From: Candidatus Latescibacterota bacterium
Lineage (GTDB): Bacteria; Latescibacterota; UBA2968; GCA-2709665
Direction of reading: 5' to 3'
DNA: 64,000 nt
Assembly: GCA_965219455.1 (NCBI GenBank)
Contig: OZ244744.1
Span: 5,440,001-5,504,000, forward strand
This document shows, in pieces, positions 1-15,138 of the stretch (positions are counted from its first letter, which is position 1; each line of letters begins with the position of its first letter). Below the pieces are notes generated by a model. That model worked only from the letters and a program-made list of their open reading frames with translations. It ran no database searches and was not told the DNA's origin. Both the position numbers and the translations under genes were made by a program.

Positions 1-2
1 TG

Positions 3-1004
3 AAACGGCGCATGGAAGCGTTACCCACGGTGTATAATGTACGAACCAGCTTCCAGGATGGTCAGCCCGAAGTGGACGTGGTGTTGCGGCCGGACGTCAC
101 GGCGGCGTTTGGTCTCACGTCACAGAACCTCGTACGCGAACTCGAGCGCAGACTGGCAGGTGAGGAAGCCGGGGAACTCTCCAAAGACCAGCGGGCGCGA
201 ACCATCCGGGTGGGTTTCGAAGATGTTGATCTTCGCGAGTTGAAACACACAAGAATTGACGGTCCCGACGGGGCGATGCTCACACTGGGAGATCTCGCCG
301 ACTTGCGCGTTGTCCAGGGGCCGCGGGAGATTTTGCGTGACGGTCAGCGCCGGGTGGGTAGGGTATCCGCTTATCTGACCGACGGGGTGGTGTTGAGCCA
401 GGCGGCAACGCAGATCAGACAGGCGGTGGGACAGATGGCCGTTCCGAACGGATATCGGGTGATCGTTACAGGCGAGGAACGGGAGCGGGCCGAGTCATTT
501 GGCGGCCTGCAATTCGCCCTTTTGCTGTCGGTGGTGCTCGTATATATGGTAATGGCTTCGCTTTTTGAGTCTTTGCTCCATCCGTTTACCGTGATGCTGA
601 CAGTGCCGCTGGCAGGCATCGGGGTGGTGTTCGCATTCTGGAGCCTTGGAGAAGCGTTTGGCGTAATGGCATTCATCGGAGCAATCATGCTGGGAGGAAT
701 CGCGGTGAACGACGCCATCATTATGGTGGACCGCATCAACCAGCTGCGGCGCGATACGGACGACTTGAGACAGGCGGTTCTCCAGGGTGCGCAGGATCGG
801 CTGCGTCCGATCCTGATGACCAGCGCCACAACCATTCTTGCGCTGTTACCCATGGCGGTGGGGGTCGGCGAAGGCGCCCGTTTGCGGACGCCGATGGCGG
901 TGGCGGTTATCGGCGGGCTGGTGACGTCCACGCTGATGACCCTTGTGGTGATTCCTGTGGTTTACGAATTGATCGAACGGCTCAGAATCAGGAGAGCGTC
1001 GTGA
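3..1004 (+). CDS. AcrB/AcrD/AcrF-family RND efflux permease, C-terminal part (5' truncated by window edge)
   Basis: Frame is open from the window start. RND C-terminal motifs LVYMVMASLFES, GIAVNDAIIMVD, RLRPILMT and GGLVTSTLMTLVVIP. Confidence 0.9.
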   Translation, partial: KRRMEALPTVYNVRTSFQDGQPEVDVVLRPDVTAAFGLTSQNLVRELERRLAGEEAGELSKDQRARTIRVGFEDVDLRELKHTRIDGPDGAMLTLGDLADLRVVQGPREILRDGQRRVGRVSAYLTDGVVLSQAATQIRQAVGQMAVPNGYRVIVTGEERERAESFGGLQFALLLSVVLVYMVMASLFESLLHPFTVMLTVPLAGIGVVFAFWSLGEAFGVMAFIGAIMLGGIAVNDAIIMVDRINQLRRDTDDLRQAVLQGAQDRLRPILMTSATTILALLPMAVGVGEGARLRTPMAVAVIGGLVTSTLMTLVVIPVVYELIERLRIRRAS

Positions 1005-4000
1005 TTCTCCCCGATCTTGCGGTACGGCGGCCAGTGACGACGTCCATGTTTTTCGCTGCGTTCGCCATATTGGGTGTCGTATCGTGGACCCGGCTTCCGG
1101 TACAGCTCTTTCCCGAGCTGATTTTTCCCGAAGTTTTCGTTACGCTCTCGCTGCCGGGGGCCGCTCCGGAACAGGTTGAAAGGGACCTGGTGATTCCCGC
1201 CGAAGGGGAGATCGGCAAGCTGGACGGGGTCCGGGAGATGGAGTCGTTTGCTATGGCCAATATGGGTGGCATAAGAATTTCCTATGCCCCGGACGTGGAT
1301 ATGAAATTCGCCCTGCTTCAGCTGCAAAGCAACCTGAACAGGTTGCAGCCGACGCTGCCCGAACGTACGCAAACGGATGTACAGAGGTTCGATTCTACAG
1401 ATCTGAGCAGCAGTATCATGGAGCTTCACGTGCTTGCCGATTGGGATCTGAACCAGCTACGGGAGTTCACGGAGGAAAAAATCCGTCCTGAATTGGAGTC
1501 TATCGACGGTGTTGTGAATGTGTCCGTAATGGGCGGGCGGCGCAGCGCCGTGGAAATCGTCCTGGATCCGTTGCTGCTGGAGGCGCATGGCCTTTCCATC
1601 GCACAGGTACGGGGACGCATGAACAACTATAACCGGCGACGTGAGTACCTCGGCCGCGTATACGACGGGAATCGGGCTTACTCGGTGAGCATTCAGGGAC
1701 AGTTTACCGACCTGCGCCAGATTCGGGATCTTGTGTTGAACGCGGACGGTACACTCAGACTTGGCGACGTTTCCCGGGTGGGATACGGACTTCAGGAACA
1801 GGCCGATCGCCACAGAGTCAACGGCAAACCATCGGTGGGGGTCCGAGTTCAGAAGGACGACGACGCGAATCTGGTCGAGGTGGCCACCGCTGTAGAAGCG
1901 GCCATTGGACAGCTGAATCGGAATTTCAAGAGCGAGGGTGTGGAATTGGGCGTGAGTTCGTCTCAGGCGGACCTGATGACCGGGGCGCTTTCCACCCTGA
2001 AACAGGCGGCCATTGTCGGCGCTGTCCTCGGACTGATCGTGCTCTTTCTGTTTCTTCGGAACCTTCGTTTTGTCTCGGTCCTCCTTCTGGCCATTCCGGT
2101 TTCTCTCCTGATGACCTTTAATCTGATGTACCTGGGGGGACTATCCGTGAACGTCCTGTCGCTTTGCGGCCTGGCCCTCGCGATGGGAATGCTCGCGGAC
2201 AACGGCATCGTGGTGATGGAAAATATCTTCAAGCACTACGAGCGTGGAAAACCGCCGGCCCAGGCGGCGCGGGAGGGGACGGCCGAGGTTGGGCGCGCGG
2301 TGGTCGCGGCAACCGCCACCACCGTTACCGCTTTCCTGCCCGTTCTGTTTATCGAGAGCGACGCGAGGGACCTGCTGCGCGAACTGGCGTTGTCCATGGC
2401 GTTTCCACTTATGGCATCACTGCTGGTCGCGCTGACGCTTGTACCGGCCCTTGCCGTCCGCGCATTGAGCCGCGAGGTCCGGCAACCGCCTGACGTCCGC
2501 GGCTTACTCGAACAGTATACGCTACTGTTGAAGGCGGCTCTGCGGCACCGCGTGTCGGTCGCCATGTCAGTAGGGGGCGCGCTCGCGCTGACACTCGTCG
2601 TGGCCTTCTTCTTCCTGCTACAGCAGCAGGTACGGCGAGAGGAGACGCGATTTACGGTTTACGTGAACCTTCCGCAGGGGGCCACACTGGATGCCACCGA
2701 TGAGGTCGCTAAACAGGTGGAAGAATCTGTGAGGGACGTGCCCGGGCTGGACCGGTTTACGACGTCGGTTCAGGAGGCCGAGGCAAACGTTACCGTCCTG
2801 CTGGGAAAGCGTACTGACCGGCCGGGCGGCATCTCGCTGGATGAAATCAAAGAGCAACTCGACGAAAAACTGCAGAACGTGCAGGGCGGTGTGGTCGGAT
2901 ACGAGCCCAGGCCGCGGGCAGGGAGGGGCGGTCGCGGGCAGGGGATAGGGCAGCGTCGGAGGCGCAGTTCCGGTGGTTTCGATCTGACGGGGGCCACGCC
3001 GAACGAGCAGGCCGTGGTTCGAGGATACGATTTTACAATACTCACGATGATCGCCAACGACATGGTGTACCGCCTTGAGGAACTGGAGGAGGTGGATGCC
3101 AACAGCGTACGCGCTGACGCCGAACGGAGTTCGCCGGAGGTTCAGGTGATTCCCGATGCAGCGGCCCTGTTCGACCGGCGGCTCGGGGCACAGGAGGTAC
3201 TGGCTGCCATGGGAGACACCCGCTTTGACGGATTCCGCACCACCGTACCGTTTCTGCTGCCCGACGCAACCGAGGTACCCATCGAAGTGCGTACGATTGA
3301 AGAGGAGGACCGCGACCGCTACGGGCTGGCTGAATTCAAACGCTCCCGCATTCTCAACCAGGAGGGGCAGTACGTGTCTCTGGACGAAGTCGCGCGGGTT
3401 CGAACGGACGAGGGCAGAAGCAGCCTGTTGCGGACCGACCAGGCCCGTCGGATTGTGGTTTCCTACCAATTTCCTTCGGAAATTCTGGATTCACAGCCAC
3501 GGTTGGATGTTGCGAGACGGTCCGTGCGGACGACTCTGCAGGATATGGTGCTGCCGGAGGGCTATTCTATCGAGACAATCGAGGCGCAGGAAGAGACGAT
3601 TTACTATTGGATGATGGGAATTGCCGCGGTGCTCATCTACATGATTCTGGCCTCGCTGTTTGAATCTTTCGCGTCTCCGGTCATCATTCTATGTACGTTG
3701 CCGCCCGCGGCCATCGGCTCCTGTTGGGCGCTGATGGCGTCGGGCACGGGTCTGAGCCAGCAGGAGGGCCCCATGGCGCTTCTGGGCCTTATTGTCCTGC
3801 TGGGTATCGCCGTGAATAACGGAATCATCCTGATTGACGCGGTCGGCGTGCTCAGGTCCCGTTTCGGATATCGCAGGGAACGTGCTGTACTGACCGCGGC
3901 AAGGTCCCGAGTGCGACCCATATTGATGACGACGGCCACAACGCTTCTGGGCGTTCTTCCGCTCGCGCTGGAATTCGGTGGTGATTTTGAAATCTGGCCG

Positions 4001-5713
4001 CCGTTTGCAATCACCGTTCTGGGTGGCTTGTCGGTTTCCATGGTATCCACACTGATCCTGATTCCGGTCGTTTACATGGGGCTGGATCAGATCGGAGCCT
4101 GGCTGGCCGACATGGGGTTTGTCGGCGTCACGCTCTCCCTGCTGGCTACCGCTGCGGCCGGCTACGGCGTATATACCCGATATGAAAGCATTTTCTGGGC
4201 AGCCCTGTCGATATTGCCCATCTGGTGCGCGTTCCTGGCGGCGGTGTGGATCGTCCTGAAGGTGCATCGCGCTCGAGTCGACGCCCGTCGGGCGTCGAGC
4301 GCCGTGTATTCCATTCAACTCAGGAATCTGACCAAAATCTACGGCGCACCCGGGCGTTTTGGCCGGGAGTGGGCGCGCAACGAGCGTCGGAGAGGGCGGT
4401 TAATGGAATTGGGATTGGATCCGCAGGACCGCAAAGCGGTTCGTGATGCTCTCCTCTGGAAGCTGCCGTTGCTCGCCCTGTTGGTGTTTTTTACCTCCTA
4501 TTTCGAGGACGAAATCTGGATCTATCTGCACGGGTTGGCGCTTGCATTCATGCTGGCACACGTGGGTCGACGTTTCGGCGACCTCTGGCGAGGGCGTTTG
4601 TCGGCGCCGGTGGACCGCATCGGAGACTTTCTGCACAAAGTCGCTCTACCACTGGGGTTTATGGCTTATGCGCACTGGCGGCTGAACTTGCTTTCCGTCA
4701 CCATTGCAACCTTCGGATTGTGGGCCGCCTATCGTCTGGCGCGATGGCTCGCGGACAAGGTGCGGACTGGCGAGATAAATCTCGATGACCTGCCCGGGCG
4801 TTTTGCACGGGCGCGCCGATGGTTTTATCGGATGCCATCGGCCCTGCCCCTTATCGGTGTTCCCCGCCCGGAATTTCGGGCGCTGGCTGGCGTCAACCTG
4901 GAAATCGGCAGGGGAATGTTCGGTCTTTTGGGCCCCAATGGCGCCGGTAAGACCACGTTGATGCGTATTCTTTGTCGGGTCCTCGAACCCAGCTACGGGT
5001 CGATTCAGATCGATGGTCGAAACATCTTGAGGAAGGGTTCGATTCATGGTCTGATCGGGTACCTTCCGCAGCACTTCGGCAACTACGAACATCTCTCCGC
5101 ATACGAATTTCTGGAATACCGGGCGCTGCTGGAAGGCTATAAGGACCGCAAGATTCGCGAGAGGCGGGTGATCGAATCTCTGGAACAGGTAAATCTGATC
5201 GAACGCAAGGAAGATCCGATCGGGTCTTTCTCAGGGGGAATGAAGCAGCGACTTGGCATCGCACAGACCCTCTTGCACACCCCGATGATCGTGGTGGTGG
5301 ACGAGCCCACTGCGGGGCTCGATCCGCTGGAGCGTATCCGGTTTCGCAACCTGCTCGCCCGCTTGAGTCAGGATCGGATCGTCATTTTTTCCACGCACAT
5401 TGTGGAAGATATCTCCGGAAGCTGCAATCGACTGGCGGTACTGGATCAGGGGCGTCTTCTGTATACGGGAACGCCGGAGGAGATGAGAAATCTGGCGGAG
5501 GGACGGGTTTGGGACGCGGTGGTTTCGGAACAGCACTTTTCCGAATTGGAAGAAAAACTGAAGCTCATATCACACCAGCGAGCGTCAGACGGCGTCCGAA
5601 TGCGATTCTTGTCCGAACGTCCACCGGTTGGCTTCGGCGCGCAGAGCGTGGATCCAACCCTGGAAGACGCGTATCTCTACCTTCTTGGCGGAGGAGAGGA
5701 ACAGCCGTGCTGA
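1001..5713 (+). CDS. RND permease fused to a C-terminal ABC transporter ATPase
   Basis: aa 1-~1030 form a complete AcrB-like subunit (RRPVTTSM, GMLADNGIVVMEN, RVRPILMT). C-terminus has Walker A GPNGAGKTT, signature FSGGMKQR, Walker B VVVDEPT and H-loop STH. GTGA overlap with the upstream gene. Confidence 0.9.
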   Translation: MILPDLAVRRPVTTSMFFAAFAILGVVSWTRLPVQLFPELIFPEVFVTLSLPGAAPEQVERDLVIPAEGEIGKLDGVREMESFAMANMGGIRISYAPDVDMKFALLQLQSNLNRLQPTLPERTQTDVQRFDSTDLSSSIMELHVLADWDLNQLREFTEEKIRPELESIDGVVNVSVMGGRRSAVEIVLDPLLLEAHGLSIAQVRGRMNNYNRRREYLGRVYDGNRAYSVSIQGQFTDLRQIRDLVLNADGTLRLGDVSRVGYGLQEQADRHRVNGKPSVGVRVQKDDDANLVEVATAVEAAIGQLNRNFKSEGVELGVSSSQADLMTGALSTLKQAAIVGAVLGLIVLFLFLRNLRFVSVLLLAIPVSLLMTFNLMYLGGLSVNVLSLCGLALAMGMLADNGIVVMENIFKHYERGKPPAQAAREGTAEVGRAVVAATATTVTAFLPVLFIESDARDLLRELALSMAFPLMASLLVALTLVPALAVRALSREVRQPPDVRGLLEQYTLLLKAALRHRVSVAMSVGGALALTLVVAFFFLLQQQVRREETRFTVYVNLPQGATLDATDEVAKQVEESVRDVPGLDRFTTSVQEAEANVTVLLGKRTDRPGGISLDEIKEQLDEKLQNVQGGVVGYEPRPRAGRGGRGQGIGQRRRRSSGGFDLTGATPNEQAVVRGYDFTILTMIANDMVYRLEELEEVDANSVRADAERSSPEVQVIPDAAALFDRRLGAQEVLAAMGDTRFDGFRTTVPFLLPDATEVPIEVRTIEEEDRDRYGLAEFKRSRILNQEGQYVSLDEVARVRTDEGRSSLLRTDQARRIVVSYQFPSEILDSQPRLDVARRSVRTTLQDMVLPEGYSIETIEAQEETIYYWMMGIAAVLIYMILASLFESFASPVIILCTLPPAAIGSCWALMASGTGLSQQEGPMALLGLIVLLGIAVNNGIILIDAVGVLRSRFGYRRERAVLTAARSRVRPILMTTATTLLGVLPLALEFGGDFEIWPPFAITVLGGLSVSMVSTLILIPVVYMGLDQIGAWLADMGFVGVTLSLLATAAAGYGVYTRYESIFWAALSILPIWCAFLAAVWIVLKVHRARVDARRASSAVYSIQLRNLTKIYGAPGRFGREWARNERRRGRLMELGLDPQDRKAVRDALLWKLPLLALLVFFTSYFEDEIWIYLHGLALAFMLAHVGRRFGDLWRGRLSAPVDRIGDFLHKVALPLGFMAYAHWRLNLLSVTIATFGLWAAYRLARWLADKVRTGEINLDDLPGRFARARRWFYRMPSALPLIGVPRPEFRALAGVNLEIGRGMFGLLGPNGAGKTTLMRILCRVLEPSYGSIQIDGRNILRKGSIHGLIGYLPQHFGNYEHLSAYEFLEYRALLEGYKDRKIRERRVIESLEQVNLIERKEDPIGSFSGGMKQRLGIAQTLLHTPMIVVVDEPTAGLDPLERIRFRNLLARLSQDRIVIFSTHIVEDISGSCNRLAVLDQGRLLYTGTPEEMRNLAEGRVWDAVVSEQHFSELEEKLKLISHQRASDGVRMRFLSERPPVGFGAQSVDPTLEDAYLYLLGGGEEQPC

Positions 5714-6429
5714 ACTGGCGAGAATTGCTGCTGACCACGTGGCGGCTCTATCGGCTTAGCTGCAGGATCATATTTCACAGGAAGTTGATGTTCATGGCCA
5801 TTGGTGTTCTTGTCTATTACGCCGCCATGTATGCATTTGCAGTCTGGCGCCCCAGCGAAGGATTCGGCGTATCGCGAGCGCTCAATGTTCTGGTTGAAAT
5901 TCCCGGCATCGCCCTGGCCATTTATCTGACGATGGATCTCGTTGCAGGCGAACGCGATAGAAATACACTGGAGACGCTATTCAGTACAACCTCGTCCCAC
6001 TATAAAATATGGGCGATTCGGATGGTCGGAGTTTATCTGGTGTTGGCGGGAACCCTGATGGGAATGACGGTTGCCGCCTATTTCTTATTTGCGGAATTGC
6101 CGATATTCCGGGGTGGGTTGAATGCGTTTCTGCCAGCGTGTTTCACCGCGGGGCTTACGTTTTACTTTTCCGTTCTCTGTCGAAGCGGCAATGCGGCCGC
6201 GATGCTCGCTACCGGAGTGATGGGCCTGACTCTGTTCATCTCGGAATCCATGCCAGATTCTCCATTCACGCTTTTTCTGAGTACGTTTGATCCCCCGGTG
6301 GGTATGGAAGGCACCCTGTGGGGCGACCAGGTGCTGCTGAATCGCCTGGCTGTACTGATGCTGTCGGGATTGCTGCTTTTTATGGGCCTGCGCAAGATGG
6401 AAGCCAGGGAGCGATTGGTATCTTCGTAG
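5707..6429 (+). CDS. ABC-2-type transporter permease-like membrane protein
   Basis: About six hydrophobic segments and the GERDRNTLETLFST motif typical of ABC-2 permeases. GTG start overlaps the previous stop. Confidence 0.75.
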   Translation: MLNWRELLLTTWRLYRLSCRIIFHRKLMFMAIGVLVYYAAMYAFAVWRPSEGFGVSRALNVLVEIPGIALAIYLTMDLVAGERDRNTLETLFSTTSSHYKIWAIRMVGVYLVLAGTLMGMTVAAYFLFAELPIFRGGLNAFLPACFTAGLTFYFSVLCRSGNAAAMLATGVMGLTLFISESMPDSPFTLFLSTFDPPVGMEGTLWGDQVLLNRLAVLMLSGLLLFMGLRKMEARERLVSS

Positions 6430-6614
6430 CGGTATGTGATTCCGCCCCGGATGAACCGATCGTACGCCACACGGCCACGGATTCCGAATCCGGTCGACGA
6501 CACGGCATTATCAGGTCGTCGTCACGGGCGGAATCTGCGGAGCGCGCCACTTTAGGTTGGACATGTCACCGATCTGATGCGCGAGACACCGGCCGGGATT
6601 CTCGCCCGCCGATG

Positions 6615-7787
6615 TTATTCCTTGCGTACATCCAACCGGACCTTGCGGGGTTCTACCTTTACGACCGTCAGATCCGTCCCGTGTGTTATCGACTCGACGC
6701 CAAACTCGAATGTTCTGCGTCCGAACCTGACGTAGGCGGCATTGATCACGAGTCGAAAGTCGTCCACGGGCGCCAGCAGAAAGGCGCGCCGCGGCCCCTT
6801 CACGGTTACGTTTACAACGTCCGGTCTGACCCCCTCCAGTGTATAGCCACTCGGTAGGTTCTCCACGCCGACCTCCACTTCGTACGTCGTTTCCTGGACC
6901 GCCGCGCCGGGTACCAACAACAGCCATGCACCGAACGCCAGCGCGAAGGAGAGCAAACCTTCAGCGAGATGTCGCGCCAGCCAGCCCCGACCGGTCCTCC
7001 TCGCGCTCGCGACCACGTGCTGCGCGTGCTCCTGTAACCTGGCCAGCAGTTCCTCGGGATCGTCTATAATCTCCAGTCGACCCTGCCGCGCGACGGCGAT
7101 GGTGCCGCGCTCCTCGGAAACCACCAGGCACAGGGCGTCGCTACGCTCGGTCAGCCCGAGTGCCGCAGCGTGGCGAGTGCCTCCGGGCCCGAGTTCGCCC
7201 CGGTTTTCCGAGAGCGGCAGATATACGGCGAAACGCTCCAGCCTGTCTTCTCTCATAACCAGAGCGCCATCGTGACCCGCCGCCGCCGTGCCGAACAGGC
7301 TATCGATAAGTTCCTCGCTGATGGTCGCTTGCAGTTCAATCCCGCCTTGCAAATACCGATCCAGCGGCTCGCGTCCGGGCAATACCACCAGGGCGCCCTG
7401 CCGCTTCGCCGCCAGTTGATGCATCGCCCGAACCAGCACCGCCAGACTCCCGCTCCGGGGGCGCGATACCCTCCTGCCCAGGCCGAGTGCGGCAATCTGT
7501 TCAAAGAGCCGTCGCAGGTCGTCCTGAAAAACGACAACAAGCAACACAACCAGGACCGCAAAAAACCCCTGGAAGATCCACGCTGTCAGTTGCAGTTCGA
7601 ATTGCCGCGCCAGCAGGTAGAAGGCACCCAAAAAGGCCAGCCCGATGAGCGCCATTCGGGCGTGCATTCTCCGAGTCCAGACCAACAGGCCCCAGAACAG
7701 TACACCCACGACCGCTATGTCCACAAAATCGGCCAATGCGATCTCAAGTAGCGTCATATCAGGAGATTTCCCGGCTGCCGGATTCAC
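6615..7787 (-). CDS. Diadenylate cyclase (CdaA/DisA_N) with C-terminal YbbR-like domain
   Basis: Three N-terminal TM helices, FQDDLRR, HDGAL, GTRHAAA and VVSEERG motifs, then a TM helix and a YbbR-like beta domain. Start may be ATG 7757. Confidence 0.85.
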   Translation of the reverse strand: MNPAAGKSPDMTLLEIALADFVDIAVVGVLFWGLLVWTRRMHARMALIGLAFLGAFYLLARQFELQLTAWIFQGFFAVLVVLLVVVFQDDLRRLFEQIAALGLGRRVSRPRSGSLAVLVRAMHQLAAKRQGALVVLPGREPLDRYLQGGIELQATISEELIDSLFGTAAAGHDGALVMREDRLERFAVYLPLSENRGELGPGGTRHAAALGLTERSDALCLVVSEERGTIAVARQGRLEIIDDPEELLARLQEHAQHVVASARRTGRGWLARHLAEGLLSFALAFGAWLLLVPGAAVQETTYEVEVGVENLPSGYTLEGVRPDVVNVTVKGPRRAFLLAPVDDFRLVINAAYVRFGRRTFEFGVESITHGTDLTVVKVEPRKVRLDVRKE

Positions 7788-8108
7788 TGGATGGAGGACG
7801 CGAGCCTGCCCACGATGGGCGAATACCTGCCGGCTCGAAATATGGGCAATCTTTCACAATTCGTCAAGACCGCAGCGAATCATTCCCGCTGGGCCGTTGA
7901 ATGTCGATCGGGGTCTCCGGCGGCCTATTCATCGCGCGATCCGGTCGGAGGCACAAGGCGTTGGATTCAGACGTCCTGCAAGACCACGCTTCGGATCTCG
8001 CCTTTCGCTTGGTCAGTCCAGGGTAAATACATATATTTAGAGACATTCAGGGCAACCGGAAATGGACATCTGTTTGTCTGACGCTGTTTATGGACGGAGG
8101 AGAGCGAT

Positions 8109-8789
8109 ATGCAGGGTACACGGGGACGATTGAGCAGGCGGGAACTCAGGCAGGACGAGTTTGCGAAAAGGATATTGGTTGCATGGGCTTATGTGGAGGA
8201 GAACTATATACGTGTGCTTGCCGTGGGCGCGGGGGTGGCGGTCCTTATCCTGCTAGGCGTATTCGTCATGCACCGGATGGACGCCCGGGCCATGGAGGCA
8301 GTGGAGGCGGAGGGACGGGTTCGGGTATTGTTGCTACAGGGGCGGGTTGACGATGCCATCTTGGAAGCAGAGCGCATTGCGGAAGCCTATAGTGGTGATG
8401 CAGCCGCAGGGCGAGCGCTTCAACTGGCTGGCGGCCTTTATTTCGAAACGGGGCGTCACGCCGAGGCACAGGCTGCATTTGAAAAATACCTCCAGGAGTT
8501 CGACTCGACGGGTCCCACGGGGTATAGCGCCTGGTCCGGTGTGGCCGCGGCGATGGAAGAACAGGGCGATCCCGCGAGTGCGGCGGCCAGATACCAGGCG
8601 TTCGCCGATGAATTCGAAGACTCGCCGTTCGCGCCCAATGCACTCAAAGAGGCGGCCCGTTGTTATCGGGTCTCGGGAGATACCGATCAGGCCAGGAATC
8701 TGTTGCAGCGCATTCTGGACAGGTATTCCAAGAGCCCGGTCGTTCGGAGCGCAGAGGAGGAACTCAAGCAGATGGGTGGCATCGGATGA
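8109..8789 (+). CDS. Membrane-anchored tetratricopeptide repeat protein (YfgM-like)
   Basis: LSRRELRQDEF N-terminus, one TM helix, then TPR-like helical repeats. RBS GGAGG. Confidence 0.75.
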   Translation: MQGTRGRLSRRELRQDEFAKRILVAWAYVEENYIRVLAVGAGVAVLILLGVFVMHRMDARAMEAVEAEGRVRVLLLQGRVDDAILEAERIAEAYSGDAAAGRALQLAGGLYFETGRHAEAQAAFEKYLQEFDSTGPTGYSAWSGVAAAMEEQGDPASAAARYQAFADEFEDSPFAPNALKEAARCYRVSGDTDQARNLLQRILDRYSKSPVVRSAEEELKQMGGIG

Positions 8790-11700
8790 CCGATCCGCAA
8801 CTCATAATGACCCGTTCACGCGAATTTCTCCCGACCAATCTGGCCGACGATATACTGCTGGTGGTACCGGACGACATGCTGCGGCATTCAACCGTCGCCC
8901 GCGTCCGTGAAGCGATCGGAGAGGCGGGACGACTGCCTGAAACGATCCCACAGAGGCGTTTTCAGCCGGCGATGTTCCGGAAAAAACACGTGATTGCCTG
9001 CGGAAATCTGGCAAATAACCGGGCGATTCAACGTTTGTATACCGCCCGTTGTTGTTTTGTTGATACCTTTTTCCCCGGTGCGAACGGGTATCTGGTCAAA
9101 TCGATTTCGAATCCGTTCGGGTACGGCCGGAATTGCATTGTCGCAGGCGCCAGCACGGAGGAGGCGCTGGTGGCGGCCCTGGGCGTCTTCAGGGACATCG
9201 TCGCCGCCAGCAGCGGCAGCCTGGATCGGGTTCACGCCGCGTCTTTCGACCACAACCTGCCTAGATTTCCGGAAGCCTCCGAGATGGACCGGATGGTTCG
9301 GGACGATCTGGAGATCTGGGGTACGGGGTGGTCCGCTTCGCCCTTTCGGGGCGGCAGGCTGCTGTCCTATCTCTGGCACTATTACCTGACAGATCATCCG
9401 GTCTGGGCGCGAGCGGCGGTGGATATCCTGAAGGGATCGATAGAACCGTGGCGCGCGGAGTGCCGTGCGCACCCGGAGGCATACCACTGTTTCTTCAACC
9501 TGCACCTCCACATCCATCTTTGGGACCTGGTGGAAGACAGCCCGCTGTTCATCCCTGAAGACCGCCTGAGGGCGGTCACTATGTTCGGCGAGTTGTTGAG
9601 ACATCTCATGAAACTCTCCTACGTCTCCGAGGATGTGAATCCGCCCGGTGAAATTCGGCAGAATCACACGACTTTTATCGGGTTGAACCTGGCGGTGGGC
9701 GCCGATTATATGATCAGGCGGTACGGCATCGGGGAATTTCAGCGGACGAACGATATCGCAAAGCGCATATTCGAAGGTCAGATGGATTCTTATAAGCCCG
9801 ACGACGATGGGGGAGTGGGGTATACCTGGCATGTACCTCAGGAAACCCTCTCTTATTTTCTGTATCGCGGGGACGACCGTTATATTACCGGGGGCCACGT
9901 GTCGGATCTATGCAAATTGGCGGTGGTGACAACCGACAATATGCGCAGCGAGTGCGGTTACGGCGATACCTCGGGATACGCCCGCTTTTCCACGAATGGT
10001 TGGGAAACGCGCCTGTGGCCGTTCATGGTATCGACCTGGCATCGGCCGGACCCCGAACACCTCTGGACGTTGAACTGGCTGGGCGACGGAAAACGTCCTC
10101 CGCTGGACCGGGTGATGCACGGCCTCTATTCCACAATAGACTACGTCGACGACGGCTTTGCCCAGGCGGGGTGCGAGCCGAAAGCACCGAACGGTTTGCT
10201 CGGAATCAGCGTGATGGATATGCCCGAGGCCGTGCTGAACTGGGTCCGTCGAAATGTCCCGCGGGCGCATCATCCGGTTCCCGGTGGACGGTATTTCGAT
10301 AAATTGTCCCTCAGGCGGAACTTCGAGCCCGACGGCGAATACCTGTTGCTGGAAGGACTCGGCACGACCTGCCATGGACACGAAGATACCAATGCGATCG
10401 TACGACTTACTTGGAACAACAGGGCGTGGCTGGCAGACGGGGATTACATCCGGGCGGCACCCAGGTTTCACAATTCCGTCGTGGTCCTGCGAGACGGTGT
10501 CGGCGTTCTCGAATCGCCTGGAGACGGCGTGGTCATCCCACCACTGGCAACTTTGAACAACAGTAACGACGGAACGGAACTCGCGATGCTCCGCACCGAG
10601 GCCGCGGGTTATAATGGCGTGGATTGGCAACGGGATATTTTCTGGCGCAAGGGTCGATACATGGTGGTTATGGACCGGCTGTGCTGTCGTGAAGCCGGCG
10701 ACTATCACATGCAGTGTCTCTGGCGGATGGTAGGGGATCCGGCACTTCAAGCGGACGGGGTCCACATCCGGCAGGAAGGAGAAGGGTTTCATATTCGCAA
10801 CGCGGACGGTTCCGCACAAGAGGTCGTTCCGGATCCGCACGTCAAGAGCCGCTGGGGAAGCTATCCCCATTCGGACGGTACGATATCCGTGTTGCATCAG
10901 CGAATAGGGTGCGGGCTCGAGCCCGGTACGTCGTTTACCTTTATGAATCTGCTCACCCCGGACACAGACATTCATATGGAGCGGGTCGGTCCCGATGCGG
11001 TGAAAGTGACGGACGCAGACGAAGTCACGTTGTTGGGTGCGGGAACGCTGGAAATGGATGACCTCGAACTTTCGGGGAGCATGTTCGCCTGTCTGGCCAG
11101 GGACAATCGGGTGGTTGTGCAGGGCATCGAACGGCTGGCCGGACAAGAAGTTGACTGTATTGAACAGGTCGTGGATCGTCCGGAGCTTGCGGCGGCGATC
11201 CGGTCCGTACGTGAAACCCCGGCGGTGAGGCCACCGTCGGACCGCCCCTCGGTTTCAGACGGCCTGACGCAACGATGGCGCCGGGAATTCCCCGCCGGCA
11301 TCCGGGATATCTCCGTCGCAGGGGACGGCAGTCTGCTTCTGGCAAGCGGGGGAGACGTCGCGTGGCTGGACGCGGAATCCGGCGAGACGGCCTGGTCTCG
11401 ATCCGTCGACGTGGAGGGCGGCGCCAGCCGGGTACATGCATCGGACATCGACGGCGACGGGAATTCGGAAGCCCTGTTGGGAACCGAGGACTCGCGACTT
11501 ATTGTACTGGAAGGAGATTCCGGAAAGGAGCGGTGGCGGCGCGGGTTGCGGAATATGTCGAGTCGCGGCTCGAGGGTGTCGGGCCTCGCCGTTGCGGATC
11601 TGGAGGGCAATGGCGACCTGAGCGTGCTTGCCGGTACCGAAGGATGGTTTGTCAATGCGTTTGCGCACGACGGCAGCCCCAAATGGGCCGAGTGGTTTCG

Positions 11701-12328
11701 ATATCACGCCATAACCGCGCTGAAAGTGGAGGACACGGACGGAGATGGAAGGGCCGAGATTCTGGTCGGTACGGAATATTATACGCCGCTAACGGTCCAC
11801 AATTTCGACGGGTCGTTTCGCTGGTCCACGTTCGAACAGGTCGGATCGCATGGTAACGCCACAACACCCAGGCGCGGCATCTGCCTGAAACATATGGTTG
11901 TATGTGATCTTGATCGCGACGGGATCCTCGAAATTGTCTATGGCACGGAGGATGGCTGGGTCTATGCCGTCAAACCGCACGATGGAGCGGAACTCTGGCA
12001 CATCAATCTCGTGGGAGAAATCACTGGGATTGTCGTTAAGGACGACGTCCTGATTGTCGCCTGCGAATACGGCGCGCTCTACGGGTTCGATTTTGACGGC
12101 AATCTGAAATGGCGCCGCCACGAGGCGCAATGGATTCACGCGCTCGCTGAATCGTGCGGCGTGATGGCCGTCGCGGCCAACCGTCGGGAAATCCGGACGT
12201 ATGACATCAAGGGACGCTGTCAGGGCTTGTTGGAAATGCCCGCGGACGTCACGTCGCTCACCGCGGAGGCGAGCGGATTCGTGTGTGGTGCGGGACGACT
12301 GCTGTTTGTATTGGATGTTTCCAACTGA
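8786..12328 (+). CDS. Large protein with heparinase II/III-like region and C-terminal FG-GAP/PQQ-like beta-propeller
   Basis: ATGA overlap with the TPR gene. HGHEDTNAI and HNSVVV motifs resemble heparinase II/III. Repeated DIDGDG/DLEGNG/DTDGDG/DLDRDG motifs. Confidence 0.65.
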   Translation: MTDPQLIMTRSREFLPTNLADDILLVVPDDMLRHSTVARVREAIGEAGRLPETIPQRRFQPAMFRKKHVIACGNLANNRAIQRLYTARCCFVDTFFPGANGYLVKSISNPFGYGRNCIVAGASTEEALVAALGVFRDIVAASSGSLDRVHAASFDHNLPRFPEASEMDRMVRDDLEIWGTGWSASPFRGGRLLSYLWHYYLTDHPVWARAAVDILKGSIEPWRAECRAHPEAYHCFFNLHLHIHLWDLVEDSPLFIPEDRLRAVTMFGELLRHLMKLSYVSEDVNPPGEIRQNHTTFIGLNLAVGADYMIRRYGIGEFQRTNDIAKRIFEGQMDSYKPDDDGGVGYTWHVPQETLSYFLYRGDDRYITGGHVSDLCKLAVVTTDNMRSECGYGDTSGYARFSTNGWETRLWPFMVSTWHRPDPEHLWTLNWLGDGKRPPLDRVMHGLYSTIDYVDDGFAQAGCEPKAPNGLLGISVMDMPEAVLNWVRRNVPRAHHPVPGGRYFDKLSLRRNFEPDGEYLLLEGLGTTCHGHEDTNAIVRLTWNNRAWLADGDYIRAAPRFHNSVVVLRDGVGVLESPGDGVVIPPLATLNNSNDGTELAMLRTEAAGYNGVDWQRDIFWRKGRYMVVMDRLCCREAGDYHMQCLWRMVGDPALQADGVHIRQEGEGFHIRNADGSAQEVVPDPHVKSRWGSYPHSDGTISVLHQRIGCGLEPGTSFTFMNLLTPDTDIHMERVGPDAVKVTDADEVTLLGAGTLEMDDLELSGSMFACLARDNRVVVQGIERLAGQEVDCIEQVVDRPELAAAIRSVRETPAVRPPSDRPSVSDGLTQRWRREFPAGIRDISVAGDGSLLLASGGDVAWLDAESGETAWSRSVDVEGGASRVHASDIDGDGNSEALLGTEDSRLIVLEGDSGKERWRRGLRNMSSRGSRVSGLAVADLEGNGDLSVLAGTEGWFVNAFAHDGSPKWAEWFRYHAITALKVEDTDGDGRAEILVGTEYYTPLTVHNFDGSFRWSTFEQVGSHGNATTPRRGICLKHMVVCDLDRDGILEIVYGTEDGWVYAVKPHDGAELWHINLVGEITGIVVKDDVLIVACEYGALYGFDFDGNLKWRRHEAQWIHALAESCGVMAVAANRREIRTYDIKGRCQGLLEMPADVTSLTAEASGFVCGAGRLLFVLDVSN

Positions 12329-12472
12329 AAATATAACAGATTCCAGACCAAAGGTTTAATGACAGATATTCATGTAATTCTGGAGGCTAAACTGAGGCCA
12401 GGAAGGACAGTACGATAGGAGAATCAAGGTAAGACATGCTCAACACTGGATCCAACTATACCAGGAATACAC

Positions 12473-12784
12473 CATGCCCTGGCCAAGGTTCCCCTCCTCG
12501 TCATTGATGACTTCGGACTCCGACCCCTTGGCCCGCCGCACGAGGACGACTTCCATGACCTCGTCGCCGAACGCTATGAACGCGCTGCCACTATCGTCAC
12601 CTCCAACCTCGACTTCAACGAGTGGGGCAACGCCTTCTCCAATCGACTCCTCGGCGCCGCAACACTCGACCGACTGCGACACGCCGCCTACCGCATCATC
12701 CTCGACGGACACAGCTATCGGTCTCCGCGTCCTCTACATACACCACACAAAATCACCCTTGCAAAGGAGGTCACCAAAACCTAA
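12473..12784 (+). pseudogene. istB: IS21-family IstB ATPase, C-terminal fragment
   Basis: Start-less frame translates to LAKVPLLVIDDFGLRP...TIVTSNLDFNEWG...AATLDRLRHAAYRIILDGHSYR, containing IstB Walker B and sensor motifs. In-frame stop upstream; no istA. Confidence 0.85.
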
Positions 12785-12823
12785 TTACATGTCACGTCTG
12801 AGACCCCCTTTTTCACCCTCGTT

Positions 12824-12852
12824 CACTGGCGCCTTTACACCGATCATTGACA
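12824..12852 (+). mobile_element. Probable IS21 right terminal repeat
   Basis: ...GGCGCCTTTACACCGATCATTGACA ends in CA just downstream of the istB fragment, as in IS21 ends. Confidence 0.5.
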
Positions 12853-13111
12853 GCATCGAAGAAGGCAAACAGAATTGTCCCAGGGTGGTTGCCGAAATAC
12901 TACGTTATTTTCCCGCATCTCATCTGTTGGAACACCGTGTAGGAGTAGACCAAATTCCGGCCCTTCTTTCATCGGCACTACTTTGGCAAATTTCAGAAGG
13001 TAAGGTTCCTAAGTATACCGGTCCTGAATATTCTCTGAATCTGTTCGTTGGTATATCCGGCAAAGAGTGAAACGTCCTGAGTCATCGTTGTCTCCTGTAT
13101 GATGCGTGGGA

Positions 13112-15094
13112 TTATCCTGAATCCCCGAACGATGCTGCGAATATGAGGAAGTCGGAAAAGCCGACCATGCCATCGGAATCCAGATCAAATCTGGAATCGT
13201 AATCCGCATCCGTGGATTGTTTTCCAAACACTTGAGCGAATTGCACAAAATCCGAAAAGCCAACAGATGAATCGCCGTCGAAGTCACCTGTCAATTGAGA
13301 TTCGACACTCAGCGTTATTGAGCTATACCGTTCAATCTCTACCATTGTACCATCGGAAAGAGAGAAGATCGCAGTCGTGAGGTTTATGGAAGTGCTGTCC
13401 GAAAAGTTGTCTGCAACAACGAAGGTTAATGTTCCCATCAGGCCTGAATTCTTCTCGAAGGAGCCTTTTCCTGTTGTGGCTGTGCCTACGGTAACGGCAT
13501 TCTCTGCGTGGGCTATAACTGCAAGGGCATCAGGTATAAGTTCCCCGGCCTCAAAGGCAAATGAGTTGGTGTTGATAGAAGTGGGGTCATGTTGTAAAGA
13601 AACTTGAAATCCGTTTAGCGTTGGCATGTCGGTGCCAAAGATTTGGACGGTGATTGAGTCTCCACTGGTGACTCCTTGCAATGTTTGCGCGTTTCGATTT
13701 TCAGGACCACGTTCCAAGTCCAAATCAATCTGGGATGAAAAAACTGTGGCTGTAAGGGGAATAGTTACGTTGGACTGATCTGGATCTGTATTCAAGACTG
13801 TGATTGTGCCGGTGATTTCTCCAGGTGATTCCGGTTTGATTGTGAGAGTGACGGAAGCGCTGTCCCCACTTTCAATGTGTACCGATTTGGGCTGGACGGA
13901 CAAACCTGGAATTTGTGAGGAAATATCCTGAATGGATAGTGTCATATTCCCAATGTTGGACACTTGCATAAATTTCGTTCTTGAAGAGCCAAGGACGATT
14001 TCGCCCATTGGGAATGTTTCTGGTATCTCAATGTCAGGTTCAAATCCCTTGCTGTTGGTGATCCGGTAGATTTTGTTTTCTTCGATATCGGCAAATATGA
14101 CATTGCCTTCTTTGTCGATGGCAAGGTCTGATGCTTTTCCGGTGACTGTGCTGATTTTTTCGGTGCCAATTTCCCGAAATCCAGAATCGTCGTTTATTTC
14201 TCCGTATCGAAATACACCTAACGATTGGAATGGTGCGTATGTTGCATAGAAAAGGTTCGATTTGGACAAGGAAAATGACTGGACATTATGGCTGCTGTGT
14301 GTAAATACGCTATCTTGGGTGCCTGATTTCCCGTTGTATCTTGCAATTGTTGTGCTGCCATAATACTCAGGGCCACTGTAAGTATATATTAAGAAGACAT
14401 TTCCGAGGGCGTCTACATCAATGTCATTTTGAAAGTTCTGATTAGTACCCGGGTCGCTCAGAAAGGTTACAGCATCTCCTGATGGGATAATTCGCATTAC
14501 AGATGAGATGAAGTCGTCTTTTCTCCTTCTGAGAATTCTTTCAGTGTACCGATCCGTGAAGTAGACGATGCCATTGAGGTTATCAATGGCAATCTGTCCA
14601 GGTACAAGGTTCGGGGCTTTGTGCACGGTGGACATGATGCCGGATTCGGTAACTTTTCTAACGCGGTGATTTCCTGTGTCGGAAATGTAAAAATCCCCGT
14701 TTTCAGCAACGCTTACGAATTGAGGGGAGTTGAGTTGTACTTCAGTGGCAATGCCGGTTTCTTCTGAGAAACCCCCCTCTCCCGTTCCTGCCACTGTGGA
14801 TATGATGCCCGTTTCTGCTTCGATTCGGCGGATTACATGGTTTTCAGAATCGGCTATGTAGAGATTCCCGTCAGCGTCAATGGCGATTCCAGTCGGAGCG
14901 TTGAGTCCGGCGTAAAGGGAAGATCCATCATCGCCAGTGTAAGATGCTGTACCTGTTCCTGCAATCGGATAAACCAGGTTCTTTTTCTGAACAATGTCAT
15001 ATGATTGGGCATGGCAATCACTGGCATTTGATATCAGTGTGAAGACGGGGATGAGGAAGATTAGTTTGGACATGGAGTTGGCAAGACGTTGCAT
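13112..15094 (-). CDS. Secreted NHL-repeat protein with Ig-like, cohesin-like and dockerin/EF-hand domains
   Basis: Signal-peptide-like start, NHL repeats (LNAPTGIAIDADGNLYIADSENHVIR), an Ig-like domain, a cohesin-like domain and a paired GDFDGD..VGFSDF / FDLDSDG.VGFSDF dockerin-like C-terminus. Confidence 0.8.
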   Translation of the reverse strand: MQRLANSMSKLIFLIPVFTLISNASDCHAQSYDIVQKKNLVYPIAGTGTASYTGDDGSSLYAGLNAPTGIAIDADGNLYIADSENHVIRRIEAETGIISTVAGTGEGGFSEETGIATEVQLNSPQFVSVAENGDFYISDTGNHRVRKVTESGIMSTVHKAPNLVPGQIAIDNLNGIVYFTDRYTERILRRRKDDFISSVMRIIPSGDAVTFLSDPGTNQNFQNDIDVDALGNVFLIYTYSGPEYYGSTTIARYNGKSGTQDSVFTHSSHNVQSFSLSKSNLFYATYAPFQSLGVFRYGEINDDSGFREIGTEKISTVTGKASDLAIDKEGNVIFADIEENKIYRITNSKGFEPDIEIPETFPMGEIVLGSSRTKFMQVSNIGNMTLSIQDISSQIPGLSVQPKSVHIESGDSASVTLTIKPESPGEITGTITVLNTDPDQSNVTIPLTATVFSSQIDLDLERGPENRNAQTLQGVTSGDSITVQIFGTDMPTLNGFQVSLQHDPTSINTNSFAFEAGELIPDALAVIAHAENAVTVGTATTGKGSFEKNSGLMGTLTFVVADNFSDSTSINLTTAIFSLSDGTMVEIERYSSITLSVESQLTGDFDGDSSVGFSDFVQFAQVFGKQSTDADYDSRFDLDSDGMVGFSDFLIFAASFGDSG

Positions 15095-15138
15095 AACGAA
15101 ACCCTCTCGCGAAAGAGAACACAAATGAATCCGGCACC

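Follow-up and report, generated by a model that had tools for sequence, protein, structure and literature searches.

The window analyzed is a stretch of 64,000 nucleotides from contig OZ244744.1 of a Candidatus Latescibacterota bacterium. It opens within the gene of an unfused RND permease (RND1), which starts upstream of the window at L005:12921 and is followed by RND2::NBD2, a gene that encodes an RND permease and an ABC ATPase together, and by the gene of a small permease (Table 1). Two genes overlooked in the original prediction, for a second ATPase and for another, much larger ABC-2 permease, lie upstream of the window at the start of the operon, and the order at this locus is NBD1 (the free ATPase), TMD_M1 (the large permease), adaptor, RND1, RND2::NBD2 and small permease. 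The translational coupling that had been proposed for the fusion gene on both sides is seen in its overlaps: its start (GTG at 1001) overlaps the end of RND1 (TGA at 1002-1004) by 4 nt, and its TGA (5711-5713) lies in a 7-nt overlap with the start of the small permease gene. The periplasmic adaptor (MFP) gene looked for upstream is there; a TolC-like outer-membrane factor (OMF) gene is found in other phyla, is part of the operon in Bacteroidota and the short class (described below), and lies elsewhere in the genome studied here. A search with the sigma-70 consensus only found no promoter or terminator sites at the operon ends (L005 7000-7400 and window 6300-6700). In RNA runs, only 0.05-0.06 of the sampled words were present.

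Table 1. Genes, domains and modeled segments at the RND2::NBD2 locus (positions in the window)
Feature	Position	Strand	Basis
RND1 (unfused RND permease, 1027 aa), 3′ part	3..1004	+	ACR_tran over whole protein, E 6.6e-225
RND2::NBD2 fusion gene	1001..5713	+	One ORF, 1570 aa, GTG start
RND2 (RND permease domain of the fusion), residues 1-1030	1001..4090	+	ACR_tran 5-1027, E 1.1e-181
Extra membrane hairpin (two helices) after RND TM12, residues ~1031-1097	4091..4291	+	AF2 model helices 2-31, 35-68
First beta strand of ABC ATPase (IQLRNLTKIYG), residues ~1104-1114	4310..4342	+	Model strand 75-85
Insertion within ATPase fold, residues ~1119-1281	4355..4843	+	AF2 model helices
ABC ATPase body and C-terminal domain, residues 1292-1570, and stop codon	4874..5713	+	ABC_tran 1297-1438
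Small putative ABC-2-type (type V) permease, 240 aa	5707..6429	+	GTG 5707 overlaps fusion TGA

RND2::NBD2 as a genuine and conserved gene

The original prediction described a single ORF carrying a complete RND subunit and an intact ABC nucleotide-binding domain, and this description was borne out. The Pfam ACR_tran match is full length (606 bits, with the cut-off at 28, over positions 3-1019 of the 1021-position model), the ABC_tran match has an E-value of 8.9e-27, and all catalytic motifs are intact. A stop codon or frameshift was looked for near position 4300 and none was found in contigs of four runs from four studies, which span the junction without inserted or deleted letters. Runs X2 and X4 each hold the span 3600-5900 in one contig, while contigs of runs X9 and X7 cover 3800-5900 and 3600-4639, respectively; run X2 may be the source of this assembly. 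The GC content is 55-64% over positions 1-12000, with no break at the operon.

RND, linker and ATPase are encoded in a single ORF in 35 of 36 genome loci of the long class, the layout found here. Among the matches listed, all 120 protein clusters (40-87% identity) carry both PF00873 and PF00005, and 111 of the 120 have a length of at least 1380 aa. When the search was run without a length limit, at least 35 of the best 150 representatives were proteins of 1389-1601 aa matched in their C-terminal part. Homologues with the RND and ATPase parts in separate genes were also looked for and are rare: a search for shorter proteins (E <= 1e-10) returned six matches, three of them on contigs shorter than 2.5 kb, and the other three (P0161, P0274 and P0276), on longer contigs, may be split or frameshifted copies. 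Two shorter proteins, P0208 and P0151, are ~530 aa long and begin with M. The fusion gene is genuine, widely conserved and under purifying selection. The idea that the fusion is artificial, made by loss of a stop codon, by a frameshift or by chimerism in the assembly, can be dismissed, refuted by the independent assemblies of four studies without indels and by the conservation of the fusion.

The linker and the ATPase domain

The C-terminal module of the fusion was modeled with AF2 (mean pLDDT 82.5; model residue i corresponds to protein residue 1029+i). In this model the ATPase fold is present including its N-terminal strand and is split by a membrane insertion, a feature overlooked in the original prediction. 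The first strand is set apart from the rest of the fold by ~175 residues holding four membrane helices; the insertion consists of a short helix, four long membrane helices and a return helix (model helices 90-107, 115-135, 142-167, 173-199, 202-227 and 240-252). K1112, in the first strand, does not vary among 37 sequences. The insertion is present in 34/34 aligned long-class sequences, all of which conserve the 6-helix membrane linker, and is absent from the short class, where the tether has only ~40 residues and no membrane insert.

NBD2 contains Walker A (GPNGAGKT at 1311), signature (FSGGM at 1410), Walker B (VVVDEP at 1431) and H-loop (STH at 1464) motifs. Residues G1311-T1319, Q1357, S1411-G1413, D1434-E1435, L1440-D1441 and H1466 are invariant in alignments of 37 and 34 sequences and, with each catalytic motif invariant, the ATPase looks active. 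Its NCBIfam matches, drrA (the best ATPase family) and GldA-type, are all below their cut-offs. The predicted model aligns with the solved ATPase 4yer_B (TM_1403) over 264 residues (VIA-align, Z 29.4, rmsd 3.3), with model range 72-536 placed on chain range 1-305 and the insertion skipped; model residues 72-75 onwards fall upon residues 1-2 of solved ATPases. The fold also matches NosF (7osf_B) at 30% identity. Foldseek and VIA-align matches are confined to the ATPase (model 72-537), the six extra helices being part of the larger query. NBD2 shares 46% identity and the C-terminal domain with NBD1, the free ATPase of the same operon, and judged from their sequences the two are close paralogues.

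Partner genes and the two operon classes

Among the species genomes of the phylum, 84 of 168 have the linker, as do 34 of the 52 high-quality ones; within the genus it is present in all 14 genomes. Genomes with the linker almost always have just one copy. The fusion with its full partner set occurs across several phyla at 30-40% identity, including culturable Bacteroidota (Prolixibacter, Draconibacterium, Marivirga and Parabacteroides), in two operon layouts. In long-class loci with enough flank, the partners are the small permease (32/32, directly downstream), RND1 (32/32), the adaptor (32/32), TMD_M1 (28/29) and NBD1 (26/29); the three loci lacking NBD1 begin at the TMD_M1 start, and the NBD1 site is outside the sequence covered. 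The order adaptor, NBD1, small permease, RND1, TMD_M1, RND2::NBD2 and OMF was found in 14/14 short-class loci, one of them cut before the OMF, all sampled from a single phylum and hence counting as essentially one event. NBD1 adjoins the small permease and TMD_M1 adjoins the fusion in these 14 loci, which is the reverse of the long class. The modules NBD1/TMD_M1 and NBD2/small permease were never found apart in the loci examined.

The periplasmic part of TMD_M1 has an inactive M1-peptidase-like domain and a Golvesin_C domain. Its Peptidase_M1 scores (24.2 and 25.7 bits) are below the Pfam cut-off of 27.7, and the HEXXH zinc motif and the GXMEN motif of M1 aminopeptidases were absent from all 27 TMD_M1 orthologues inspected. 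M1 peptidase activity was rejected on the basis of the zinc motif count (0/27).

The small permease had been given as a 306-aa protein from TTG 5509, a form that is over-long; the GTG 5707 start is preferred. The claim that it is ABC-2-like stood in part. The over-long form scored 21.6 bits with Pfam ABC2_membrane_2, below the cut-off of 27.2, and the 240-aa form had no Pfam match at E <= 0.001, whereas the orthologue at locus L037 reached 30.2 bits. The AF2 model (pLDDT 85.2, pTM 0.82) had NosY (7o0y_D) as its best fold match (TMq 0.65, E 4e-3), followed by CcmB, PmtD and ABCG5/G8; type V membrane domains fill the top Foldseek rows, none with an E-value <= 0.001. The ABC-2 label is therefore only indirectly supported. 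At L037, a 285-aa permease matched the small-permease profile with an hhalign probability of 94% and the TMD_M1 profile with 7.7%, while the N-terminus of a 922-aa protein matched the TMD_M1 profile with 88.6% and the other with 0.3%. Paralogy of the two permeases was rejected (hhalign probability 4.4%, not significant).

Complex prediction for the C-terminal module of the fusion with the small permease gave 0.53, 0.56 and 0.59 in three runs (median 0.56), while the best of three controls gave 0.00; at least 84% of contacts are shared between the runs, with a partner pLDDT of at least 70. Of 157 solved complexes 116 reached the mark, as did 2 of 215 mismatched pairs, and scores of 0.60 or less at the mark belonged to only 18 of the 157 solved complexes yet to both passing mismatches. 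ATPase-permease pairs have been solved many times, so the pass may reflect likeness to solved structures, and the contact is weakly predicted.

Models of the export system

The best explanation of these data is that RND2::NBD2 belongs to a single envelope exporter with seven conserved parts. We hypothesize, with a probability of roughly 0.45, that one heteromeric ABC-2 transporter is tethered to an RND1/RND2 pump to make a two-step exporter using two energy sources. RND1 and RND2 would form a mixed trimer, by analogy with MdtB and MdtC, and NBD2, hanging from RND2, would pair with NBD1 and power with it a heteromeric type V membrane module in which TMD_M1 and the small permease are combined. 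This module would spend ATP to extract the substrate from the cytoplasm or inner leaflet, and the covalent tether would keep beside it the proton-driven RND trimer, which would take the substrate at its periplasmic face and expel it by way of the adaptor and outer-membrane channel. The swap of permease-ATPase adjacency between the two classes is easier to explain if all four proteins form one transporter. The cargo may be, at a guess, an amphipathic or envelope-bound molecule, since type V ABC and RND systems carry such kinds of cargo. A further proposal can be advanced only tentatively and is doubtful: the heteromeric type V transporter, docked covalently to an RND1/RND2 heterotrimer in a single envelope-spanning machine driven by ATP and protons, would pass its cargo unreleased into the RND/adaptor/TolC path, with the inactive M1-like domain as the hand-over site.

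Two homodimeric ABC-2 transporters, NBD1 with TMD_M1 and NBD2 with the small permease, might instead stand beside the RND pump, the fusion only tethering the second; two RND2 subunits per trimer would then bring two copies of NBD2 together. Most bacterial ABC-2 exporters, including NosFY, are homodimers of one ATPase and one permease. Asymmetric sites are often found in heterodimeric ABC ATPases; the sites of NBD1 and NBD2 are both complete and canonical, without asymmetry, so the sequences fit two homodimers equally well. This arrangement is also favored by the long-class gene order, in which each ATPase gene adjoins and is translationally coupled to one permease gene, by NosFY, a typical homodimeric exporter, being the top fold match, and by the weak complex-prediction support for pairing the NBD2 module with the small permease. 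However, the adjacency is reversed in every short-class locus and the two modules are not found separately, and we consider two homodimers unlikely. A swap in gene order can also arise from chance rearrangement.

Fusions of co-operonic genes are common, and this one could lack mechanistic meaning, serving only to secure the co-expression, co-localization or stoichiometry of two systems with different substrates. This is improbable because the fusion persists with all its partners across phyla and both layouts, split forms are rare and the membrane linker is kept throughout the long class.

The fused ATPase could, alternatively, act directly on the RND domain, replacing or regulating proton coupling in an ATP-driven or ATP-gated pump. 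The covalent link departs from RND TM12, by a short tether in the short class, and the proton relay, in a departure that the original prediction overlooked, differs from that of AcrB, whose residues are D407, D408, K940, R971 and T978. In RND2 the relay is incomplete, N401 standing for D408 and N939 for K940: TM4 has D400-N401 and TM10 has V938-N939-N940, kept in 144-146 of 146 homologues (N940 in 128). Nonetheless, D400, R970/R972 and T977, read from the MdtB alignment, are retained, and the same D-N / N-N pattern is found in unfused RND1 orthologues (D 31/31, N 30/31). Of the 10 RND genes in this genome, 7 show it, including five further unfused paralogues besides RND1, and the relay lysine is absent from all 10. 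The pattern is therefore a subfamily trait and not a loss tied to fusion, and it was rejected as a mark of an ATP-driven RND protein. ABC ATPases need a partner ATPase and the coupling helix of an ABC membrane domain, and two ABC permeases are always encoded alongside; direct action of the ATPase on the RND domain is thus quite improbable. The evidence points to NBD2 working for an ABC-2 membrane module that the tether keeps at the pump. Of the hybrid machine that the original prediction envisaged, the conserved fusion and fixed neighborhood stand, whereas the coupling of both energy sources, like an ATPase that drives the RND domain, is conjectural.

Known systems resemble parts of this locus. 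In MdtABC-TolC and MuxABC-OpmB, as here, two tandem RND paralogue genes follow one adaptor gene and the OMF is encoded in the operon or in trans; MdtABC contains an MdtB2C heterotrimer. MdtB (9lyq_B) is the best solved relative of both RND1 (E 6e-101) and RND2, which aligns to it over residues 6-494 and 766-1035. However, Mdt subunits carry no ATPase, the Mdt operon has neither ABC-2 permeases nor a free ATPase, and the relay is D-D / K in Mdt and D-N / N-N(D) here. The identity of RND2 to MdtB is low, and it fell below the NCBIfam subfamily and equivalog cut-offs for RND_permease_2, MdtB, MdtC and AcrB (best NF033617, 519.7 bits against 1250; MdtC, 367.5 against 1774). In NosDFY(L), a type V ABC system, NosF is among the best fold matches of NBD2 and NosY is that of the small permease, and an ABC-2 membrane module works with a large periplasmic partner domain, as proposed here. 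Unlike the present system it has no RND protein, adaptor or OMF, NosD is a beta-helix protein and not M1-like, and the Nos ATPase is neither split nor fused. MacAB-TolC also combines an ABC ATPase with an adaptor and a TolC-like channel, but MacB is a type VII transporter whose ATPase is fused to its own 4-helix permease, with no RND protein; in the present system the fusion partner of the ATPase is an RND protein and the permeases are probably of ABC-2 type. According to two articles (PMC11539658, PMC8427324), MmpL7 (RND) and DrrABC (type V ABC) are both required for the export of one mycobacterial envelope lipid, PDIM. There too an RND protein and an ABC-2-type transporter serve one export, and drrA is the best, below-cut-off family match of NBD2; they are, however, separate proteins in another type of envelope, with an RND of the MmpL family and no adaptor or TolC-like channel. 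We know of no covalent fusion of MmpL7 and DrrABC.

The system had been called poorly described, in agreement with the full-text literature searched (subscription journals and TCDB were outside its scope), where no description of an RND-ABC fusion or of its seven-gene set was found; the fusion is also not described in the first 300,000 characters of a review (PMC8277102). That inner-membrane pumps feed tripartite pumps is an established idea (PMC4338810). Structurally, the interruption of an ATPase fold by four membrane helices is odd in itself. To our knowledge, only the kinetics and genetics of separate proteins have until now pointed to cooperation between inner-membrane and RND pumps, and a natural covalent fusion gives a direct handle on substrate hand-over from an ATP-driven to a proton-driven transporter. 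The fusion and its seven-part set define a large export system in bacteria of gut, marine and soil habitats. Textbooks present RND and ABC transporters as alternative ways to power tripartite efflux; here both kinds of pump, which are commonly taught as either-or, seem to be combined in a single machine for export.

The fusion gene and its operon

The original prediction described an RND permease fused to an ABC ATPase, between an upstream RND gene and a downstream ABC-2-type permease, and the ORF and domain calls bore out both its coordinates and its description. The fusion, RND2::NBD2, carries a complete ACR_tran domain at residues 5-1027 (Pfam, E 1.1e-181) followed by ABC_tran at residues 1297-1438 (E 8.9e-27). 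All NCBIfam matches fell below their cut-offs, those of the front part being RND_permease_2, MdtC and MdtB, and those of the back part drrA/GldA-type ATPases. The TGA of the unfused upstream RND gene (RND1) and the GTG of the fusion overlap as GTGA, and GGAGAG lies just before this overlap, by a few bases. The TTG at 5509 proposed as the start of the last gene was over-extended, and the GTG at 5707 gives a small permease of 240 aa.

Genes of the operon and neighbouring features (window position = L005 position minus 15000, L005 being the window's genome locus)
Feature	Position	Strand	Description
NBD1	L005 7295-8185	same as fusion	free ABC ATPase, 296 aa; upstream of window
TMD_M1	L005 8192-11560	same as fusion	1122 aa; ABC-2-type membrane domain, Peptidase_M1-like, Golvesin_C
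RND-type adaptor	L005 11554-12684	same as fusion	
RND1	from L005 12921	same as fusion	
RND1, 3' end	window 3-1004	+	unfused RND gene, 1027 aa; start outside window
RND2::NBD2	window 1001-5713	+	one open frame, 1570 codons, GTG start
Small permease	window 5707-6429	+	GTG overlaps fusion TGA
CdaA-like diadenylate cyclase	window 6615-7787	-	DAC domain, CdaA_N, weak YbbR; convergent with operon end
TPR protein	window 8109-8789		ahead of 1222-aa ORF
1222-aa ORF	window 8660-12328	+	PQQ_2/FG-GAP beta-propeller repeats; seemingly unrelated to pump operon

The genes beyond NBD1 upstream are metabolic and seemingly unrelated, and the CdaA-like gene lies downstream on the opposite strand. The membrane domain of TMD_M1 has six to seven helices, and its Peptidase_M1-like stretch is under the Pfam cut-off. 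A peptidase function of this M1-like part was rejected because neither HEXXH nor GXMEN was present in any of 27 TMD_M1 orthologues.

The survey for a conserved neighbourhood proposed with the original prediction, adaptor and outer-membrane factor (OMF) genes included, gave a consistent picture. Among loci with enough flank whose fusion has a membrane-helix linker (the long class), the small permease, RND1 and the adaptor were each found in 32/32, TMD_M1 in 28 of 29 (missing in the degraded L028) and NBD1 in 26 of 29; the sequences of L012, L019 and L031 begin at TMD_M1, with the NBD1 site outside them. The Prolixibacter operon (L007) has a 495-aa TolC-like gene between TMD_M1 and the adaptor, and other Bacteroidota loci have a gap of equal size there. 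No OMF gene was found inside the operon of the window's genome, which has five OEP genes at other sites. Outside the window, on contig G000:C1 near 791314 (locus L002 spans 793564-796755), an RND paralogue occupies a stop-to-stop frame of 1351 codons, long for an RND, and is followed by an OEP gene at about 795805-797043.

The ATPase module and the small permease

The C-terminal part of the fusion (residues 1030-1570) was modelled with AlphaFold2 from 34 sequences (mean pLDDT 82.5, pTM 0.66). In the model, RND TM12 is followed by two long helices and a beta strand at residues 1104-1114 (IQLRNLTKIYG), and then by a short helix, four long helices, a return helix and the remaining ABC ATPase with a C-terminal domain. 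VIA-align superposed model residues 72-536 on TM_1403, a Thermotoga ATPase (4yer_B, residues 1-305; 264 residues aligned, Z 29.4, rmsd 3.3). The alignments of dozens of further ATPases likewise begin at model residue 72-75, which identifies the isolated strand as the ATPase's own first strand. In the predicted structure, a membrane insertion some 175 residues long splits the NBD2 fold. The count of two plus four helices would keep the topology consistent, since the RND C-terminus and the ATPase would both be cytoplasmic. All catalytic motifs of NBD2 are invariant in alignments of 37 and of 34 homologues. Its best ATPase fold matches in Foldseek include TM_1403, NosF and ABCA-family domains, and NBD1 is 46% identical to it and shares its C-terminal extension.

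The small permease was also modelled (AlphaFold2, pLDDT 85.2, pTM 0.82). NosY was the closest structure, followed by CcmB, PmtD, ABCG5/G8 and ABCH, all of them type V ABC membrane domains, at TM-scores of 0.65 or less and with no E-value below 0.001. Three complex predictions that paired the C-terminal module of the fusion with the small permease scored 0.53, 0.56 and 0.59 (median 0.56; best of three controls 0.00). Of 157 solved complexes, 116 pass the mark of this measure, and of 215 mismatched pairs, 2 do; only 18 of the 157 pass with a score of 0.60 or under, as do both passing mismatches. Contact agreement between the runs was at least 84% and partner pLDDT at least 70. The predictions weakly suggest a pairing, and the score may reflect mere likeness to solved structures, because ATPase-permease pairs are abundant among them.

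Two operon classes and the proposed machine

Some relatives, 1389-1458 aa long, are without the extra helices and form the short class. In one of them, at locus L037, the first ATPase strand comes about 40 residues past RND TM12, and the insertion, of about 45 residues, has no membrane helices. The membrane linker is therefore dispensable, and the feature constant across both classes is the covalent tether. The short form was present in 23 of 35 genomes of L037's phylum. In an Acidobacteriota locus (L075:8354-12920), an RND gene with about 24% identity to RND1 and RND2 is followed, some 226 codons on, by an ATPase that shares 50% identity with NBD2. This locus may represent a third, independent type of RND-ATPase fusion.

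The gene order of the short class was the same in 14/14 loci (12 plus L037 and L062, one of the 14 ending ahead of the OMF): adaptor, NBD1, a 285-aa ABC-2 permease, RND1, a 922-aa protein, RND2::NBD2 and OMF. Profile comparison related the 285-aa permease to the small permease (probability 94%, against 7.7% for TMD_M1) and the N-terminus of the 922-aa protein to TMD_M1 (88.6%, against 0.3% for the small permease), and tblastn identities paired NBD1 with NBD1 and NBD2 with NBD2 across classes. Seven parts are common to both classes, and the permease adjoining each ATPase is exchanged. This swap, essentially one rearrangement event, and the strict co-occurrence of the parts fit one heteromeric ABC transporter of two ATPases and two permeases, as judged from gene order.

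We tentatively propose, at a probability of about 0.45, that an RND pump and a type V ABC transporter are tied together through RND2. The analysis shows which parts make up the set, that the set is conserved, that the ATPase is intact and that its fold is split. As to contacts, stoichiometry, transport direction and cargo, we infer a scheme in which RND1 and RND2 would form a mixed trimer with the adaptor and an outer-membrane channel, and RND2 would physically tie this trimer to the transporter made of NBD1, NBD2, TMD_M1 and the small permease. With ATP as its energy source, the ABC part would lift cargo from the cytoplasm or the inner leaflet; the RND part, driven by the proton gradient, would expel this cargo from the periplasmic face. 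Two separate homodimeric ABC-2 transporters are a rather unlikely arrangement: ATPases that each serve their own permease would be expected to stay adjacent to it, yet the permeases were swapped between classes. It is improbable that the genes of this conserved set are co-localised without functional coupling.

Proton relay, spread of the fusion and known systems

Aligned with MdtB (9lyq_B), RND2 has D400-N401 at the AcrB-type two-aspartate site and N939 at the TM10 lysine site, and retains the TM11 arginines and threonine; we take these TM4, TM10 and TM11 positions to have their AcrB-type relay roles. Of 146 full-length homologues, 144-146 share these RND2 residues. RND1 orthologues have the same pattern (D in 31/31, N in 30/31, TM10 N in 30/31), with N (16 sequences) or D (15) at the next position, as do five more unfused RND genes of the genome, in which none of the 10 RND genes has the lysine. 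Loss of proton coupling as an explanation was rejected, the pattern being common to RND1 orthologues and the unfused paralogues. The pattern is a trait of the subfamily and does not speak for an ATP-driven RND. We consider an RND driven or gated by ATP slightly more improbable still than mere co-localisation.

The fusion junction was checked for a frameshift or stop, a concern of the original prediction, by aligning contigs from four public runs of four studies to window 3600-5900. Runs X2 (possibly the source) and X4 each gave a single contig across the whole interval, X9 covered 3800-5900 and X7 covered 3600-4639. None of these contigs showed an insertion or deletion over the stretch that it covered, and the fusion frame was upheld. 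A word-indexed search confined to proteins of 863-2748 aa listed at least 120 clusters for residues 1030-1570, at 40-87% identity; all 120 have both PF00873 and PF00005, and 111 reach a length of 1380 aa or more. When 1.84 billion representatives were searched exhaustively and irrespective of length, at least 35 of the best 150 matches were proteins 1389-1601 aa long, each matched at its C-terminal end. The characteristic linker was found in 36 of the 80 genome loci fetched with the family alignment, and 35 of these have RND, linker and ATPase in one ORF. That the fusion is an artefact is thus practically negligible as an explanation.

The exception is L028, from a Prolixibacteraceae MAG (fusion at about 10663-15353), in which several operon genes are fragmented (linker ORF 143 aa, RND1 612 aa, TMD_M1 339 aa), through either decay of the operon or an indel-rich assembly. 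Few short proteins matched the linker: six did so at E <= 1e-10, three of them on contigs under 2.5 kb. Two representatives from the exhaustive search, P0208 (539 aa) and P0151 (526 aa), have their initial Met within the helix hairpin that follows the RND. They comprise the membrane insertion and the ATPase but no RND domain, and may be either genuine stand-alone forms or truncated gene calls. In the window's phylum the linker occurred in 84 of 168 species genomes (34/52 high-quality, 14/14 of the genus), nearly always as a single copy, and the open frames span about 1570-1600 codons or more. Named carriers include Latescibacterota, Calditrichaceae, Zixibacteria and many Bacteroidota (Prolixibacter, Draconibacterium, Marivirga, Maribellus, Parabacteroides, Bacteroides sp.). 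Marivirga tractuosa (L024), Prolixibacter bellariivorans (L007) and Draconibacterium mangrovi (L012) are carriers that can be cultured and are not pathogens.

The RND/adaptor half of the operon is laid out like MdtABC, and the nearest fold likeness of the ABC half is NosFY. The pairing of RND with type V ABC resembles that of MmpL7 and DrrABC, which act in PDIM export (PMC11539658, PMC8427324). MdtABC, NosFY and MmpL7/DrrABC are not known to have a covalent RND-ATPase fusion, a split ATPase or this seven-part set. Full-text literature searches and a term search of the main tripartite-systems review, with subscription-only papers and TCDB outside their scope, found no description of an RND-ABC fusion, and database labels of the fusion proteins are generic only. 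The fusion system is real and widespread, and it combines known kinds of machinery.
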